From a virus, in the IMG/VR virus record IMGVR_UViG_3300045988_010419: a DNA stretch of 6,147 bases; one strand, given 5' to 3'. Within the stretch, counting starts at the first letter, position 1; each line of letters opens with the position of its first letter. Below are positions 200 through 6,147 of the stretch, one piece after another. Both the position numbers and the translations under genes were made by a program. The notes beneath the pieces are model-generated. The model saw only the letters and a list, made by a program, of their open reading frames with translations, was not told the DNA's origin and ran no database searches.

Positions 200-1882
200 T
201 TACAGTTTATACAAGCCCGGTACGCTGTACAACGGCATCCGTCTCGTGGTTTTGTTTGCTATGCGGATTGCACCGAAGAATTGCGGCTCATTCTGCACGA
301 TGAGCGTACGTGCAATTTCGGATTTCCCTTCTGTCATCCATTCCTGCGATAACGTTGGTACGGTTTCGTAGTAGTCTGCATAGTGCCAGAATTCCAGACT
401 GCCGGTTGCGTTGCTTCTCATGAGGCCTGAAACCCGATTGGGTTTCATCCTGTAGTCTGACCAGGCTTCTTGATACCCAAATGTTTCTTCGTCTGTCCCG
501 AGGCCTGTTAGCATGATTTCTTTCTTTTTGACAGGCTGTTCCCCCAAGTTTGCGAACTGGGGTACATAGTAATCCAGTCTGTCGGTTCTGCTCCAGAAAC
601 GTTCCAAACCCTGCTGATAACTGTGATTGTGTCGGACGCAACATACGCCAATTACAAAGCCATGTTCCTCAAAAGATTTTGTGAAACTGCTTTCATTGAT
701 TGGCGTTACCGACATTGCACCCGTCTCGCCAATTGGCGTGTCTCCGTTTGTCTGCTGACCGCTGGTCTGGACGATTTGATTAACGTTGACGTGATATCTG
801 CCACCGCCAAGGTACTCCGGCACCTGCACGGTTTTATCGCTGATTACCACGTCCCACAGTGCCTGTACCTGTTCGCGGTATCTGCTGCCGCCTCGTGCAA
901 GTGCCTCGTAGTACTGCTGTACTGCTACGGCTTTTCTCAAATCGTTGATGGTTGCTGCAGCTACTTCTCCAAGGTCTGCATACATCCATCCTCCTGCTCC
1001 TGTTTCGCCGCTTGCTCTTTCTTTTCCGTCGAATTGCATCGTCTTTTTTTCTCCGGGCGCTCCGGTGGAATTTCCGTATATCAGAGACCCGGGTGTGTTT
1101 TTTCCACTCACGTCTATTACCATTTCTACCGGTCCGTTGAAATTTTGGTAATTTCCTTTTGCGTCTCCCAATCTGATAGGTGCATTTCCTGCCAACGGTA
1201 ATGTCACTTCTGGTCCGCGCTGCGGATACGGCAGACAGCTGGTGAAGTAGTCGTGGAATTTGTTTACTGGTAAGCATCTGCCGCCGCTGATTGCGTGCTG
1301 TATATTTCCTTCAATGTTTTCTTCGTCTCCTGTGTCTTCATAATTTACATTATCGCTGTTGCTTTTCCATGCTGCTGCGTTTTCAACGTTTTCGTCCCTG
1401 AAAAACTCGTTCCAAATCATGACGTATGCTCTGACGGGAAGTGCGTTGACCGAGAATCCGTGCGAAATTTTTGTCGGTACTCCCATGTAGTCCAGGATGC
1501 TGTTTTCTTTTGGCAGTTTATTTTCTTCTTTTCCGTCTATAAAGATTTGCGGTACTCTGTAGGTCGTCGTTGGCATCCAAGGCGTTTTTTCGACTTCTCC
1601 CATAAATTGTTTGAATTCATCCCATAAGATGCGGTTAGGACAGTAGAAGTAGTAAAAATCGATGAACGCATCATCGAAAACAGGATATTTCGGCGTTGTC
1701 ATTCGGATGATTGCTGCCGTATCTACACTGAAAGTATCGCCCGGCAATACCTCGTCAACATAAAATGGAATCAGCTTGCCGGAATCGAACGTTGTTAAAA
1801 CCGTCTGGTCACGGTTGAATCTCGTTCGACTTGCTTTCATTTCCGGAATTTGGTTAAAGTGCCGTTCATTGTTTCGATTCAT
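200..1882 (-). CDS. VP1: VP1 major capsid protein (Microviridae F-like jelly-roll capsid), 560 aa
   Basis: Largest ORF. The N-terminus ...RFNRDQTVLTTFDSGKLIPFYVDEVLPGDTF... has the characteristic microvirus capsid motif (G.L.P....EVLPGD.F). A strong SD, AAGGAGGGAGAAGA, sits directly upstream of the ATG at 1882. An ATGA start/stop overlap with VP3 lies at 1879-1882. Confidence 0.95.
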   Translation of the reverse strand: MNRNNERHFNQIPEMKASRTRFNRDQTVLTTFDSGKLIPFYVDEVLPGDTFSVDTAAIIRMTTPKYPVFDDAFIDFYYFYCPNRILWDEFKQFMGEVEKTPWMPTTTYRVPQIFIDGKEENKLPKENSILDYMGVPTKISHGFSVNALPVRAYVMIWNEFFRDENVENAAAWKSNSDNVNYEDTGDEENIEGNIQHAISGGRCLPVNKFHDYFTSCLPYPQRGPEVTLPLAGNAPIRLGDAKGNYQNFNGPVEMVIDVSGKNTPGSLIYGNSTGAPGEKKTMQFDGKERASGETGAGGWMYADLGEVAAATINDLRKAVAVQQYYEALARGGSRYREQVQALWDVVISDKTVQVPEYLGGGRYHVNVNQIVQTSGQQTNGDTPIGETGAMSVTPINESSFTKSFEEHGFVIGVCCVRHNHSYQQGLERFWSRTDRLDYYVPQFANLGEQPVKKKEIMLTGLGTDEETFGYQEAWSDYRMKPNRVSGLMRSNATGSLEFWHYADYYETVPTLSQEWMTEGKSEIARTLIVQNEPQFFGAIRIANKTTRRMPLYSVPGLYKL

Positions 1883-2277
1883 TCTTCTCCCTCCTTTGCT
1901 TTAGGTTCTGCTTTAGGTTCCGCTGCTGCCATTTTTTGTAGTTCTTCAAGTTTCATGGCGTTTGCCTGTGCTGTTGCGATCATGCGGTGATACTCATGGA
2001 TATTTTGCGGAAATTCCGTAATATCCACTTCTGTTCCTTCCAGCGCTCCTTGTGACAGGCTTTTCAGAAATTGCGGGTCAAAACTTGCTTTTCGGACAAT
2101 GTTTTTGATATCACATTCATCCGCATAGCTTTCAATTTCCTGCTGGATGTCTATTGGTGCTGTTTCTTGCAGCACTTCTTGTCCTTCCTCGTCTTTTGCC
2201 CAGACGTATTGCTTTCGCATTTTTTCGCCTGGTGCAGAAAAGAAGGGCTTTCGCCCTTCTTCATATCGTTTATTCAT
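1879..2277 (-). CDS. VP3: VP3 internal scaffolding protein (132 aa from ATG 2277; the track version from TTG 2337 would be 152 aa)
   Basis: Position directly upstream of VP1 and translationally coupled to it, with typical size and an acidic C-terminus (AAAEPKAEPKAKEGEE). The ATG at 2277 (MNKRYEEG...) has GGGAGGG 8 nt upstream. The TTG at 2337 and ATG at 2334 have no SD and would overlap the preceding ORF by 60-68 nt. Identity rests on synteny and size, not on a motif I can verify. Confidence 0.6.
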   Translation of the reverse strand: MNKRYEEGRKPFFSAPGEKMRKQYVWAKDEEGQEVLQETAPIDIQQEIESYADECDIKNIVRKASFDPQFLKSLSQGALEGTEVDITEFPQNIHEYHRMIATAQANAMKLEELQKMAAAEPKAEPKAKEGEE

Positions 2278-2509
2278 TCGGCTTGCCCTCCCATACTTTC
2301 TCTTTGTCGTTCGTGAACGTGCCATGTTCGTCATCAAACACTGCCAGCTTGAAGCCGGTATAGTCGCCCGGTGCCTGTCCGACGAAAGTCTTTTCGTCTT
2401 TTGCCATCACATTGCACATACGTGCAAAGGTTGCATTGTTCTTGCTCTCGCCTACCCATGCGTAGCACTTTGCTACACTGTCCCAAAGACCAAAATATTC
2501 ATGTTTCAT
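2270..2509 (-). CDS. 79-aa conserved-type small nonstructural protein, tentatively VP5-like
   Basis: ATG at 2509 with SD AAAGGAGAG 8 nt upstream. The sequence Y..LWDSVAKCY......KNNATFARM.....PGDYTGFKLAVFDDEHGTF fits the pattern I recall for the small gokushovirus nonstructural protein (Y.D.KA...........A.R.F.......P.DY.L..LG.FDD.TG). The functional label is from memory and unverified. Confidence 0.5.
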   Translation of the reverse strand: MKHEYFGLWDSVAKCYAWVGESKNNATFARMCNVMAKDEKTFVGQAPGDYTGFKLAVFDDEHGTFTNDKEKVWEGKPNE

Positions 2510-2526
2510 GATATTTACTCTCCTTT

Positions 2527-2649
2527 TTACAGCCGGATGCCACCGCGCATTGGTTTCTGACTCAGGTTGATGGCTTTGGTTTTCCGTGCGGTTGTGTTAA
2601 ACATACGGCGGTCTTTTGCGCCTTTCATTGCTTTACGATGTCGTGCCAT
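2527..2649 (-). CDS. 40-aa highly basic DNA-binding/packaging protein (phiX174 J / gokushovirus ORF8 analogue); absent from the ORF track
   Basis: Hand translation of the minus strand gives MARHRKAMKGAKDRRMFNTTARKTKAINLSQKPMRGGIRL*, with 13 K/R versus 1 acidic residue. The C-terminal MRGGIRL resembles the MRGGIRF ending I recall for chlamydial microvirus ORF8. SD GAAGGGAG lies 7 nt upstream of the ATG at 2649. Confidence 0.75.
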   Translation of the reverse strand: MARHRKAMKGAKDRRMFNTTARKTKAINLSQKPMRGGIRL

Positions 2650-2862: not shown

Positions 2863-2985
2863 TTACTCCTCTTCTTTATCGTTGATGTTGTCATGCAGTG
2901 CATGATAGATTTCGTCAAGCTTTTCCAGAATCTGCATCATGATTCGGATTGCCTGTTTGACGTCTTTAATCGAAATCAGTGCCAT
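2863..2985 (-). CDS. Hypothetical small protein, 40 aa (MALISIKDVKQAIRIMMQILEKLDEIYHALHDNINDKEEE); absent from the ORF track
   Basis: ATG at 2985 preceded by AAGGAG plus a 7-nt spacer. The stop TAA at 2865-2863 lies 2 nt before the next ATG. The operon-like packing supports a real gene. Confidence 0.55.
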   Translation of the reverse strand: MALISIKDVKQAIRIMMQILEKLDEIYHALHDNINDKEEE

Positions 2986-2989
2986 TTGT

Positions 2990-3064
2990 TTACTCCTTCA
3001 TGTTTTTTCTGTTTTGCTCACAATTTGTTTTTTCGGTCTGGTCTCGCACATTCCATGATTTCAT
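2990..3064 (-). pseudogene. 24-codon mini-ORF (MKSWNVRDQTEKTNCEQNRKNMKE) whose 5' end duplicates the 5' end of the 75-aa ORF; possible truncated paralogue or very small gene
   Basis: Codons 3-10 (SWNVRDQT) are encoded by a 23-nt copy (3035-3057) of the sequence encoding TWNVRDQT in ORF 2633-2860 (2825-2847), with 22/23 identity. Only a weak SD (AAGGAAA) is present. Its last codons carry the SD for the next ORF. Confidence 0.3.
3035..3057. repeat. 23-nt direct repeat, copy B (ggtctggtctcgcacattccatg)
   Basis: See copy A. Both copies sit 8-36 nt inside the 5' ends of minus-strand ORFs. Confidence 0.9.
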
Positions 3065-3137
3065 TGCTTGTTTTCCTTTTTCCCTTTCCAGGTTATGGCG
3101 TCATTCGATTGTCAGTTGATGCTGGTAAGTGCCATTT

Positions 3138-3530
3138 TTACACCCCCTTTCTGTATTTTTTCCCGGTTCGTACATCAAAGTGCACCCAGGATTTATATAC
3201 GATAATGCCGCATCCATCCGGTACGATTTCATTTAGCTTGTTGGCAAGTTCTTTTGGACTTATTCCATCTACCCGGATATCTGCTGCCATACCGCGCATA
3301 TGATAGCTGTATTTTGCTCCGTTGCATTTTTTGTTCCATTCTGGTGTTCTGTATCCGCTGGTTATAATGACCGGTTTCCCTAGCTTATGTCTTAAGATAT
3401 CCAGGATGGTGTATAGGTAGTCGTCTATGAATATTACCTGACTACCGTCTTTGCAAGCAAATTCCCTTACCCTAAAGTGTCTTGCTAGCTTTACGTTTCC
3501 ATCTGTGTCCATGATATAGCATTTAAGCAT
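3138..3530 (-). CDS. Zinc D-Ala-D-Ala carboxypeptidase-fold cell-wall peptidase (Peptidase_M15_3 / YcbK-DUF882-like), 130 aa; probable lysis enzyme
   Basis: The motifs are in canonical order: FRVREFACKDG, ITSGYRTPEWN, SYHMRGMAAD (H-x6-D zinc ligands), WVHFD (third ligand). The ATG at 3530 has AGGAGGG 9-10 nt upstream. The track start at 3539 is a TTG immediately abutting that SD and is less likely. Confidence 0.88.
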   Translation of the reverse strand: MLKCYIMDTDGNVKLARHFRVREFACKDGSQVIFIDDYLYTILDILRHKLGKPVIITSGYRTPEWNKKCNGAKYSYHMRGMAADIRVDGISPKELANKLNEIVPDGCGIIVYKSWVHFDVRTGKKYRKGV

Positions 3531-3535
3531 TTTTG

Positions 3536-3721
3536 TCAACCCTCCTTTTCTGTGAAGTACAGCTTTATTTCTTCAATCTTGTACAGGCTGTAGATTCCTT
3601 TGTGTTCTTCTGCGTATTCCTTTGCTCTCTTTTTTGCGTTTTTCGGTTCATCATTGATTTTTAATACTGTGGTCATGCTGTCGTCGTCGTTCCAACTTCT
3701 CAGTTCATATCTGTGTTTCAT
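3536..3721 (-). CDS. Hypothetical protein, 61 aa, hydrophilic; first gene downstream of the intergenic promoter
   Basis: The ATG at 3721 is preceded by AGAAAGGAAGGTG (a near-perfect anti-SD complement) plus a 6-nt spacer. The track start at 3730 is the GTG inside that SD. The stop TGA lies 5 nt upstream of the ATG I call for the peptidase gene and overlaps the alternative TTG start at 3539. Confidence 0.65.
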   Translation of the reverse strand: MKHRYELRSWNDDDSMTTVLKINDEPKNAKKRAKEYAEEHKGIYSLYKIEEIKLYFTEKEG

Positions 3722-3748: not shown

Positions 3749-3777
3749 ATTTTATCATATTTTTTAAAAAAAGTCAA
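3749..3777 (-). promoter_or_regulatory. Sigma70/SigA-type promoter: -35 TTGACT (3777-3772), 17-nt spacer, extended -10 TGATAAAAT (-10 hexamer 3754-3749)
   Basis: Minus strand reads aacTTGACTttttttaaaaaataTGaTAAAATataatcacagaaaggaaggtg. It has an A/T-rich UP-like flank and would give a leader of about 20 nt to the ATG at 3721. Confidence 0.6.
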
Positions 3778-3908
3778 GTTTTTTTTAGAATTTTATTGAT
3801 ATATCAGTAGCCTGTTTTGCTCCTTTGTTTTGAATGGCGCTTTAGCGCCTTGCCGTGCGTAGCGTATGCGGAGCTCGGCTAATCCATTCATTATGAGCGC
3901 TGTGCGCG

Positions 3909-4021
3909 TTTTCAACACTTTCAACACTTTCAACAGGTTTTCAACAAAATGTTGCACAATGATTTCCGTCATTTTGACGGACTTTCAACATTTCAACAAT
4001 TTTTCAACAAAACTTTCAATA
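3909..4021 (+). repeat. Iteron array: 7 exact plus 1 degenerate copies of (T)TTCAACA in two clusters of four flanking a 6-bp hairpin
   Basis: TTCAACA occurs at 3911, 3920, 3929, 3940 and at 3984, 3992, 4003, with TTCAATA at 4015. All copies share one orientation, with spacings of 9, 9, 11 and 8, 11, 12 nt. The central hairpin is tccgtc-atttt-gacgga at 3965-3981. Confidence 0.9.
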
Positions 4022-4117
4022 TTGTTTTTTGCTTTTTATTTACGCTTTAACGTTAAATTTTAGTACTTATCAACTTTTCCACATTGCCTACTACTACTCC
4101 TACAACAAGTTAATATA

Positions 4118-4168
4118 ATATACGCGTGTGTGCGCACGCGCGTTTGCGCGCGTGCGCGCGCGCGCGCA
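4118..4168. repeat. CG-rich alternating purine-pyrimidine tract (26 nt + TT + 24 nt) with internal 11-bp GC hairpin
   Basis: 4118-4143 atatacgcgtgtgtgcgcacgcgcgt and 4145-4168 tgcgcgcgtgcgcgcgcgcgcgca alternate Pu/Py without a break. (GC)7 runs 4154-4167. 4132-4142 pairs perfectly with 4147-4157 around loop TTTG. Confidence 0.9.
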
Positions 4169-4199
4169 AAGCGGCAGCCCCAAGATTGGGGCGTGACGC

Positions 4200-4227
4200 A
4201 AGGGGTTGACTTTTAAGTCAACCCCTT
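4200..4227. other. 12-bp perfect stem-loop (aaggggttgact-ttta-agtcaacccctt)
   Basis: Base-by-base pairing of 4200-4211 with 4216-4227 around a 4-nt loop. A further 5-bp GC hairpin lies at 4177-4192 (gcccc-aagatt-ggggc). Confidence 0.85.
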
Positions 4228-4267
4228 TGAATCACTGAATAGACTGATACATGGAGTCCATAAATGA

Positions 4268-4309
4268 CACCTAGCCAAGTACCTTACTTGATAGGTACTT
4301 GGCTAGGTG
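4268..4309 (-). terminator. 17-bp perfect stem / 8-nt loop hairpin starting 14 nt after the VP4 stop; candidate transcription terminator and/or ssDNA origin structure
   Basis: 4268-4284 cacctagccaagtacct pairs with 4293-4309 aggtacttggctaggtg. On the coding strand it is followed by TCATTTAT, a modest U-tract. The structure is certain but the function is inferred. Confidence 0.5.
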
Positions 4310-4323
4310 ACACCATGACACTG

Positions 4324-5343
4324 TTAAAGTGTCCCTCTCTTCTTCATCTGCTTCTTTATCACTCTCTCTTTCGTTTTACACTGTTCTGCAAAGTCTGCAT
4401 TTTCGTACTTTAGTCGGTTTTCTGCGATTGCTGCCGCTTGCCTGTTCTGTTTAATTCTCCACAATCTTTGTGGGTTTTCTGCTTCCATCATTTTTTCATA
4501 ATAACGTGGAATTTGTGCTTGTTTGCCGTTTGTGCATTGGATGTAGCCTTGTCTCCAGATTTCTGCTTTGTGCTCTTGATAATAGTGGTCTCCTAAGCCC
4601 GGCTTGAGGCTCATACATGCAAAAGGTTTTTGTTGCCCTAGTTCATAGTACTTGTTTGCTTTTTGACCGTCTATCTCATACATTTTTTTTGTGACGTATC
4701 CTGCAACATATCTATACGTTTCTGGTACTGCTTGCGCTATTTGGATTTGACCCATGCCCCATAGGTTTTCTAGCCATTTACTTGTGAAATATCCGTTGTG
4801 TTGTATCTTGTATAGGTGCTCTAGGTCTGTTGGTTGCCATCCGTATAGAATCATGTGATAGTGCGGTCTTGCTGTCTGTTCTCCGTACTCTCCCGCTACA
4901 AAATAGCGTAATTTGCCCCTATAAGCCTTTCTGAGACGTTTTAAGAACTTTTGAACGTCAGTATACAGTAACGTTTGGACGCTTTCAGGGCGCTTCTCTC
5001 CCGGTTTCCAGACGTATTGTACTTTTCGCATGATTTCACCTGTGTTTACTATCATGCCTGGTACATGGTCATCATCATAAGTTAACGTGATAAACCAAAC
5101 TTCTTCTTTTGGATAGTCTCGTGCTTCTAATTCTATTCGTGTTGTCCAGTCCTCCCTTTGTCTGATTCTGCATCCGATGCATTGCCCGCATGGTATCAAC
5201 ATGACGTTTTTTCGGTACATCAAATCTTCATATTTGAGCTGTTTTCCCGATATTTCAGAAAAACGGGCGAGTGAATACACCCGCCCGCTTATGCTTTTGT
5301 CTTCCGGGTTGTACAGCCTTATTAATGGCTTGTAACAACTCAT
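4324..5343 (-). CDS. VP4: VP4 replication initiation protein (HUH rolling-circle endonuclease), 339 aa
   Basis: Contains a Cys cluster IPCGQCIGCRIRQREDW, motif 1 FITLTYDD, HUH motif RPHYHMILYGW, and the catalytic Tyr motif YRYVAGYVTKK. SD AGGTGAT lies 8 nt upstream. An ATGA overlap with the VP2 stop is at 5340-5343. Confidence 0.93.
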   Translation of the reverse strand: MSCYKPLIRLYNPEDKSISGRVYSLARFSEISGKQLKYEDLMYRKNVMLIPCGQCIGCRIRQREDWTTRIELEARDYPKEEVWFITLTYDDDHVPGMIVNTGEIMRKVQYVWKPGEKRPESVQTLLYTDVQKFLKRLRKAYRGKLRYFVAGEYGEQTARPHYHMILYGWQPTDLEHLYKIQHNGYFTSKWLENLWGMGQIQIAQAVPETYRYVAGYVTKKMYEIDGQKANKYYELGQQKPFACMSLKPGLGDHYYQEHKAEIWRQGYIQCTNGKQAQIPRYYEKMMEAENPQRLWRIKQNRQAAAIAENRLKYENADFAEQCKTKERVIKKQMKKRGTL

Positions 5344-6147
5344 TTCAAATAATCACCTGGCTTTCGTTTTTCTCCGTAGCTTCCTGTTTTGTCCTGTGGC
5401 TTTATGCTTCTGCCTTGTTCTGCACCTTTGCCTTTTTCTGTCTTTGCTGTTGCATCTTTAATGGCTTCGCTTGTGTCGTTTCCGACTTTGGTTAGTGTTT
5501 TCATCAGTCCGTAGGGTGTCATTTGCGTTGTGCTTAGCATCTGCTGCCAGCTTTGTGCCGCATTGTACCAGTCGCTTTTGCTCCAGCTTGAGCTTGAGTA
5601 TGCATTTGGTACAAATCCACCGCTTCGGCTTACTCCTAGTGCACTACTGCTTGCAAGTCCCATACTTGCACCGCTGATTGTGCCGGCGCTTCCACCCGGT
5701 GTGCTCGCTCCCCCATTTGAGAATGCTAGGATAGGGTTAAGCCCCGCTTTTCGCATGTCTTCAACTGCACGCTGGTATGCTGTGCTTGACATGTGCTCTT
5801 GCCATTCACGGTTCGCTAGTGCTTCTGCACTGTTGTAGTTCATTGCTACGCTGTTTTCAATGTGGTTGTATACGCCTTGCATGATTGCTTGTAAGGTGTT
5901 GTAACCCATCTGTTTAAGCATACTTTGACTGTTGTATTTACCTTGCATGGCAGCCTCTTGCCCTTGGTATGCGTATGCTTGCTTTAGCCAGTCGTTTACC
6001 TGTTGAATGTTTGTGCCTGCTTGACTTCCACTTTCAGAGTGTCCGCCGCCTTGGCTTACGCTTCCACCTTGGCTTTGGCTGTTTCCTGTCTGACCCCATC
6101 CGCCTAAAGCTCCAGTGACGTTTTTTGCTGCTCCTGCGATTGTTCCG
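5340..6147 (-). CDS. VP2: VP2 minor capsid / DNA pilot protein, 3' segment (runs off the window edge; the true start is the ATG at 161 across the circular junction; total 289 aa)
   Basis: Carries the characteristic motif NREWQEHMSSTAYQRAVEDMRKAGLNPILAF. Hand translation from 6146 down to 5949 gives GTIAGAAKNVTGALGGWGQTGNSQSQGGSVSQGGGHSESGSQAGTNIQQVNDWLKQAYAYQGQEAA with no stop, in frame with the track ORF that starts at M 5948. Confidence 0.88.
   Translation of the reverse strand, partial: GTIAGAAKNVTGALGGWGQTGNSQSQGGSVSQGGGHSESGSQAGTNIQQVNDWLKQAYAYQGQEAAMQGKYNSQSMLKQMGYNTLQAIMQGVYNHIENSVAMNYNSAEALANREWQEHMSSTAYQRAVEDMRKAGLNPILAFSNGGASTPGGSAGTISGASMGLASSSALGVSRSGGFVPNAYSSSSWSKSDWYNAAQSWQQMLSTTQMTPYGLMKTLTKVGNDTSEAIKDATAKTEKGKGAEQGRSIKPQDKTGSYGEKRKPGDYLK
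6049..6147. repeat. Terminal redundancy copy 2 (identical to 1-99)
   Basis: Same 99-nt string as positions 1-99. It lies inside the VP2 coding frame, so it is coding sequence seen twice rather than a structural repeat. Confidence 0.95.

Follow-up and report, generated by a model that had tools for sequence, protein, structure and literature searches.

The window, by which we mean the whole stretch of 6,147 nt that was analysed, carries a 99-nt terminal direct repeat (positions 1-99 are identical to 6049-6147). This repeat is assembly overlap that was left in the record, so that the window holds a whole genome, a circle of 6,048 nt. All recognisable genes lie on the minus strand (Table 1), and the genome is that of a standard gokushovirus from the human gut: It encodes the F-type capsid protein VP1, the pilot protein VP2, the Chlamy_scaf scaffold VP3, the replication initiator VP4, VP5, and a small basic DNA-binding protein, which is the gene set that defines the Gokushovirinae. 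The size of the circle fits this subfamily (ca. 4.5-6 kb), and the nearest GenBank records are classified there, the closest being Gokushovirus WZ-2015a (KT264791) from human faeces with 84.6% identity over 89% of the length. An Rfam scan of the window gave no match.

Table 1. Positions of genes and other features. Coordinates are those of the window, except for TM27, whose coordinates refer to the three related contigs named.
Feature	Position	Strand	Remarks
VP2 pilot protein	161->1 then 6048->5340	-	289 aa; PHROG 8742 'pilot protein for DNA ejection'
VP2, first 28 codons	78-161	-	only recurrent hydrophobic, uncharged coding-strand segment; candidate for a putative membrane-active element
VP1 major capsid protein	200-1882	-	PF02305, E=4e-135
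VP3 internal scaffold	1879-2337	-	Chlamy_scaf
VP5	2270-2509	-	PF20577
Basic protein	2527-2649	-	40 aa
ORF75	2633-2860	-
ORF40	2863-2985	-	40-aa acidic amphipathic-helix protein
ORF24	2990-3064	-	24 aa
Peptidase	3138-3530	-	130 aa + stop; PF08291, PHROG 894
Active-site codons	3174-3350	-	R61 3348-3350, H77 3300-3302, D84 3279-3281, H117 3180-3182, D119 3174-3176
ORF61/64	3536-3721 (61 aa, ATG); to 3730 (64 aa, GTG)	-	no family match
Shine-Dalgarno motif	3540-3546	-	AGGAGGG, 10 nt upstream of ATG 3530
Promoter-like site (candidate)	3749-3777	-	TTGACT, 17-nt spacer, TG-extended TAAAAT; upstream of ORF61/64 and peptidase
Non-coding stretch	3973-4323		350 nt, between 'ORF59' region and VP4
VP4 replication initiator	4324-5343	-
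TM27 examples	L152 5266-5349; L164 4686-4769; L186 5002-5085

The peptidase gene and its product

The gene upstream of ORF24 encodes a peptidase. Its open reading frame can be extended to a TTG at 3539, but we regard the ATG at 3530 as the true start because the AGGAGG motif is spaced 10 nt from this ATG versus 1 nt from the TTG. The resulting 130 aa are also the length of most database homologues, and a gene of this size was called independently on two independent 6,103-nt assemblies with an identical peptidase sequence, one of them from a Human Microbiome Project sample.

A preliminary description of this DNA had recognised an M15_3-type zinc peptidase with intact ligand motifs that takes up about 6.5% of the genome. 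The size estimate is right (393/6048 = 6.5%), and the search with PF08291 and related M15 profiles that it had proposed confirms the family. The protein matches Pfam PF08291 (Peptidase_M15_3) with E=7e-22 and 78.1 bits against a cut-off of 23.2, over profile positions 2-108 of 108, and gives a second, weaker Pfam match to PF05951 (Peptidase_M15_2/DUF882; 35.7 bits against a cut-off of 27) as well as a match to PHROG 894 'endolysin' (E=2.5e-42). In an alignment of 38 sequences composed of the microvirus clade and a Faecalibacterium-phage clade, which are ca. 45% identical to each other, residues R61, S75, H77, D84, H117, and D119 are invariant. Two of these have counterparts in the zinc DD-peptidase of Streptomyces albus (1LBU), where H77 aligns with H154 and D84 with D161, both of them zinc ligands of that enzyme, and the ligand set of His-x6-Asp (H77, D84) plus a C-terminal His (H117) and a conserved Arg (R61) is present. 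The predicted product is a soluble single-domain zinc peptidase of the Peptidase_M15_3 family (LAS, clan MD), and its substrate is presumably peptidoglycan.

An AlphaFold2 model of the protein is of moderate quality (pLDDT 68.9, pTM 0.67; block-mean pLDDT 65-93 from residue 31 on). The leading PDB neighbours of this model all have the LAS fold (VanY, VanXY, Hedgehog-N, Ply500, 1LBU, and LdcB) and none of them reaches E<=0.001; the top matches, VanY and VanXY, are weak (E 3e-3 to 2e-2). An assignment to a specific M15 subfamily or bond specificity from structure was rejected for this reason, as PDB matches of this strength do not discriminate. Among the predicted viral structures in BFVD, the model matches phage 'Peptidase M15A' proteins with E down to 2e-11, other microvirus peptidases among them, and the equivalog model for MepK (NF053624) scores 47.6 bits against a cut-off of 185.

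The peptidase evolves under a constraint (dN/dS 0.15 across 75 clade sequences) comparable to that of VP4 (0.20; VP5, 0.08), which argues that the gene is functional. It is also widespread: We found more than 1,350 database homologues, many of them on complete microvirus-sized contigs, and the best 120 of these more than 1,350 are all at least 78% identical, with many contigs of ca. 5.3-6.1 kb. GenBank relatives carry the annotation 'peptidase M15' (KX513868, KX513876, KX513877) or 'similar to peptidase' (MG945xxx). The gene is absent from closely related gokushovirus lineages and from prophages of Clostridia, so that it must be dispensable for the basic life cycle.

These numbers contradict the preliminary description in one respect, because it had called such peptidases rare and only sporadically noted, while they are a recurrent and already published accessory gene of gut microviruses (PMC3394797, PMC9239249). 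Roux et al. 2012 (PMC3394797) described M15_3 peptidases in 11 human-associated microviruses, 5 of which are Gokushovirinae, inferred repeated horizontal transfer with a closest affiliation to Faecalibacterium for 4 of these 5, and saw that the homologues in bacteria and prophages have holins next to them; they put forward a function as endolysin and raised the possibility of Gram-positive hosts. Kirchberger et al. 2022 (PMC9239249) treat peptidases as recurrent lysis-associated accessory genes that are exchanged across microvirus families, and also reported the first microviral prophages in Gram-positive genomes. For another microvirus, Ebor, a virus-encoded hydrolase was found to degrade peptidoglycan (PMC11980548). 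A 2023 review repeats the textbook view, in which ssDNA phages lyse their hosts by a single gene and without an enzyme (PMC10707117). Our literature search turned up no paper with an explicit analysis of the missing holin.

Membrane segments, small genes, and DNA elements around the peptidase

Membrane-spanning segments were sought with Kyte-Doolittle hydropathy windows of 19 residues (KD19, threshold 1.6), used instead of TMHMM or SignalP, in ORFs of at least 20 aa. No such ORF in any of the three coding-strand frames of the circularised genome reaches the threshold. The highest value on this strand (1.12) belongs to the N-terminus of VP2, which the preliminary description had singled out, with the correct string, as the only uncharged stretch of transmembrane length in the genome; its hydropathy lies under the transmembrane threshold. 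For the peptidase, the maximum is 0.85 in an internal segment, the N-terminus (MLKCYIMDTDGNVKLARHFRVRE) is polar, and neither a signal peptide nor a signal-anchor-release segment is apparent by hydropathy. Likewise, no E-type small membrane protein was seen in any coding-strand frame, here or in the relatives, and none of the small ORFs matches a PHROG lysis family. When examined for a canonical holin-endolysin cassette, the locus thus has the endolysin homologue without an adjacent transmembrane holin.

The same screen was applied to a comparison set of 77 related IMG/VR contigs. Across ca. 75 close relatives, no recurrent holin-like ORF was found on the coding strand, only three unrelated singleton hydrophobic ORFs, and the sole recurrent hydrophobic coding-strand segment in the related contigs is again the VP2 N-terminus, with KD19 values of 1.4-1.56 in many of them. 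One 10.9-kb contig (L054, IMGVR_UViG_3300045988_007630) was kept out of all comparative counts; it has about twice the genome length and many hydrophobic 'coding-strand' ORFs in its first half, which suggests a head-to-head chimera or an inverted dimer. The approach recognised what it should in three positive controls: The scan flagged two transmembrane-bearing ORFs directly upstream of the peptidase on L078, which is a fragment of a tailed phage with 43% peptidase identity to ours; phiX174 E scored a KD19 of 2.79; and the annotated holin of FP_oengus was identified as PHROG 263 'holin' (E=5e-27).

Two hiding places for a secretion signal or holin were considered and rejected. Longer homologues of the peptidase (155-200 aa) have polar N-terminal extensions, and the one of 200 aa arises by read-through from the 'ORF59' region. 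Prompted by the complementary-strand ORF of Roux 2012, we also looked for an antisense holin, but none of 74 relatives has kept the 162-aa ORF on the strand opposite the peptidase intact, and no antisense ORF is conserved among them; antisense ORFs look hydrophobic because the antisense strand is T-rich. With both strands covered, here and in ca. 75 close relatives, the hydropathy screen agrees with the earlier statement that the genome has no holin, signal peptide, or E-like ORF.

Three of the small neighbouring ORFs are real genes under purifying selection, i.e., ORF40 (present in 78/79 relatives, dN/dS 0.12), ORF75 (48/79, dN/dS 0.18), and ORF64, the longer form of ORF61/64 (only 19/79, dN/dS 0.20). 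None has a family assignment in Pfam or PHROG, and none is hydrophobic or cationic-amphipathic; the small ORFs near the peptidase had been described as free of transmembrane-length stretches, and indeed none reaches the KD19 threshold. ORF64 is hydrophilic (maximum KD19 -0.38). ORF40 (MALISIKDVKQAIRIMMQILEKLDEIYHALHDNINDKEEE) has a net charge of -4, a maximum KD19 of 0.95, and an amphipathic helix (muH 0.70), and is unannotated in nearly all GenBank relatives. We considered it as a peptidase-specific partner and rejected this idea, since it is present in peptidase-less genomes too and must be a core gene of the lineage.

The stretch between the peptidase and ORF40 is a scar of local duplication or recombination. 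A 36-nt direct repeat (2816-2851 and 3026-3061, 86% identical) shows ORF24 to be what is left of a duplication of the 5' end of ORF75. The ribosome-binding site and start of ORF40 are also present a second time (3128-3146 versus 2978-2996), reading MALTSIN*, and this copy overlaps the peptidase stop. In KX513868 and on contig L082, ORF40 directly follows the peptidase.

On the other side of the peptidase, gene callers annotate a protein 'ORF59' (3793-3972, minus strand), sometimes fused to the peptidase (P0058). Its peptide (VENLLKVLKVLK) is the plain translation of TTGAAA repeats, and 8 of the 12 coding-strand TTGAAA hexamers cluster at 3915-4019 (minus strand), overlapping the frame. A role as fused partner of the peptidase was rejected given a dN/dS of 0.89 at a dS of only 0.17, the lack of a Shine-Dalgarno motif, and the repeats themselves. 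The cluster has the appearance of a conserved DNA element, similar to iterons or promoters, rather than of a protein. Promoter-like matches in the region, to which the candidate site in Table 1 belongs, are not enriched over shuffled sequences (7 versus 4.3 +/- 2.2 expected). The non-coding region after VP4 (3973-4323) contains a hairpin with 20-nt arms (4265-4312), a perfect 13-nt hairpin (4200-4227), and an alternating CG/CA tract of ca. 48 nt (4123-4170), all of which are possible origin or terminator elements.

The post-VP4 region of some peptidase-less sister gokushoviruses harbours small hydrophobic ORFs. A 27-aa ORF (TM27; MLNTMNFYPWNDIFWIILMLILLWITC) occurs there in 15 of 54 peptidase-less versus 0 of 50 peptidase-bearing genomes, and a 24-aa ORF (TM24; MVDVIQSIAIMLLSIAVIINAKRR) in a few peptidase-less genomes, such as L135 (KT264799, 3972-4046). 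They could be E-like lysis peptides or conserved DNA; TM27 has very high nucleotide conservation, and its variable sites are distributed 10:7:4 by codon position, without third-position bias. Counted together with a further ORF, TM23, small hydrophobic ORFs are found in 27/54 peptidase-less and 0/50 peptidase-bearing genomes. We rejected this mutual exclusivity as support for a lysis function of the peptidase, because it is confounded by clade structure, TM23 often has no start codon, and TM27 shows the codon-position pattern just mentioned.

Origin of the gene and probable host

The nearest homologues of the peptidase outside microviruses are endolysins of Faecalibacterium tailed phages (44-46% identity), and a search seeded with one of these endolysins retrieved a large clade on contigs of up to 135 kb. 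A VP1 alignment was also used to scan one genome per bacterial species. The closest relatives of VP1 on long contigs (41-47% identical) all lie in metagenome-assembled genomes (MAGs) of Clostridia, i.e., Peptostreptococcaceae, Lachnospiraceae, Oscillospiraceae, and unclassified Clostridia. Two loci that we inspected are flanked by bacterial genes (MutL, AlaRS, a Mur ligase, a PBP, and a Xer-type integrase), so that these VP1 relatives are integrations. Shine-Dalgarno-like motifs precede seven genes of the window, the peptidase included, and the use of such motifs fits Firmicutes better than Bacteroidota. Together, these motifs and the distant VP1 relatives suggest that the host is probably a Gram-positive member of the Clostridia.

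Some details of the integrated relatives may be recorded here. The gokushovirus prophages on contigs L083 (ca. 7850-12400) and L085 (ca. 9100-14300) comprise VP1, VP2, VP4, and the basic protein, without a peptidase. A methionine gamma-lyase gene lies upstream of both, and a Xer-type tyrosine recombinase gene is found near the one on L085. A 36-kb Clostridia MAG contig (L092, ca. 8900-18600) contains a microvirus genome twice in tandem with identical sequence, due to either a tandem prophage or an error of assembly.

Possible roles of the peptidase and comparison with known systems

We lean towards the view that the peptidase is a horizontally acquired endolysin for progeny release that would reach the cell wall by a non-canonical route. 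A lysis enzyme is favoured by its nearest relatives outside microviruses, which are endolysins in holin-endolysin cassettes, and we infer both the lysis role and the route of export from sequence. The ancestor of a large clade of mammalian-gut gokushoviruses would have taken the gene from a lysis cassette of Clostridia tailed phages of the Faecalibacterium-phage type. Expressed late and from the same strand as the structural genes, the enzyme would accumulate in the cytoplasm and finally cut stem peptides or cross-links of the host wall, so that progeny are released. The holin of the donor cassette would not have been acquired and no replacement is seen in the genome, in which case the peptidase must reach the wall non-canonically. 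Our guess is that it might be released when the membrane is compromised late in infection, for which the VP2 N-terminus would be the only encoded candidate; against this route stand the hydropathy of that segment below the usual transmembrane threshold (1.12) and the fact that the known function of pilot proteins is DNA delivery and not lysis. Alternatively, a host-dependent leak or export route may serve the same end.

No holin would be needed if the peptidase sat in or on the virion and opened the peptidoglycan locally during DNA delivery, and the lack of a holin speaks for such an entry enzyme. So do the wall of a Gram-positive host, which a tailless T=1 phage would find hard to pass, the M15A-type domains that also occur in tail-associated lysins, i.e., within large tail or cell-wall-hydrolase proteins (some with a gp5 N-terminal OB-fold domain), and the trace amounts of Gp7 in Ebor virions (PMC11980548). 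We nevertheless consider an entry function unlikely: The homologues nearest to the peptidase are endolysins that stand alone within lysis cassettes, and among the inspected homologues none is fused to VP2 or any capsid protein, the longer forms being polar read-throughs. Sister genomes and prophages moreover infect without the peptidase, and a T=1 capsid offers little spare room.

It is quite improbable, in our view, that the missing partner is present in the genome as an unrecognised holin-like or export helper, acting as chaperone or membrane disruptor and encoded by ORF61/64, ORF40, ORF75, or an ORF shorter than 20 aa or with a non-standard start. The mycobacteriophage Ms6 protein Gp1 is a precedent for a helper that is not a holin, ORF40, ORF75, and ORF64 are real genes (dN/dS 0.12-0.20), and the helix of ORF40 is strongly amphipathic (muH 0.70). 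The same ORF40 is acidic (-4) and shared with peptidase-less genomes, though, and ORF64 and ORF75 accompany the peptidase in only 19/79 and 48/79 peptidase-bearing relatives, with no hydrophobic segment in any of the three. An absent holin and signal peptide would also be accounted for if the enzyme were an enzymatic 'amurin' that destroys UDP-MurNAc-pentapeptide, lipid II at the cytoplasmic face, or D-Ala-D-Ala from within; wall synthesis would be blocked and growing cells would lyse with no need for export, as with phiX174 E. Such precursors are hydrolysed in the cytoplasm by the M15 relatives VanX and VanXY, and VanY and VanXY are the top PDB matches of the model, weak as these are (E 3e-3 to 2e-2). 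Yet the fold matches do not separate subfamilies, and the invariant residues are common to holin-adjacent endolysins at 44-46% identity; we therefore hold precursor attack to be very unlikely. If it were true, it would be a third lysis strategy of small phages, in a microvirus that probably infects Gram-positive Clostridia. The dispensability of the gene in sister lineages, finally, could point to a non-lytic accessory role such as wall remodelling or superinfection exclusion, or to a neutral hitch-hiker. Strong purifying selection with invariant catalytic residues in a 6-kb genome and the retention of the peptidase across many related contigs make this highly improbable.

Few phages of the mammalian gut are as abundant as gokushoviruses, and this clade offers a concrete handle on their lysis, since its peptidase appears to be an enzyme of endolysin type that is under constraint and was parted from the holin on acquisition. 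To know its path to the wall, or whether it works from within the cell, would clarify lysis in microviruses other than phiX174 and its kin, and the question of export would at the same time test the suggested Gram-positive Clostridia host. Both the gene and its interpretation as an endolysin have been published before, so that the window does not introduce a new type of element but contributes a further genome and a clearer formulation of the problem.

Among known systems, the cellular clan MD enzymes 1LBU, VanY/VanXY, and E. coli MepK (YcbK) have the same zinc-ligand motif and the fold class that is predicted for the microvirus peptidase; the latter has no Tat or Sec signal and no membrane anchor. 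phiX174 E and other 'amurins' resemble the proposed role of the peptidase in that they release progeny from a very small genome. E itself is a small, transmembrane, non-enzymatic MraY inhibitor encoded in an overlapping frame, in contrast to a soluble enzyme in a genome without a coding-strand transmembrane ORF. Gp7 of Ebor (proposed 'Tainavirinae'; PMC11980548) is likewise an accessory wall hydrolase of a microvirus; the zymogram activity is that of Gp7, whose HHpred homologue is PDB 6SSC. Ebor belongs to another microvirus lineage with an alphaproteobacterial host and encodes a predicted 45-aa membrane protein, Gp1, unlike the genome studied here.

The endolysins of the Faecalibacterium phages FP_oengus (AUV56575), FP_Toutatis (AUV56799), and Lelie are likewise single-domain proteins (ca. 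137 aa) that match PF08291 and PF05951 and have all catalytic residues in common with the microvirus peptidase. They differ by a 7-residue insertion before the WVH motif that the latter does not have, and in FP_oengus an annotated holin lies two genes downstream of the endolysin, whereas the microvirus has none. The closest counterparts are the M15_3 peptidases of gut Gokushovirinae and Alpavirinae (PMC3394797; GenBank records), which agree in family, habitat, affinity to Faecalibacterium, and position in the variable region between VP4 and VP5. The closest record, KT264791, contains the peptidase gene without annotation. Compared with its gut Gokushovirinae relatives, the genome described here has an extra small duplication scar between the peptidase and ORF40; protein identity to the GenBank gokushovirus peptidases is 61-92%, and nothing essential differs.
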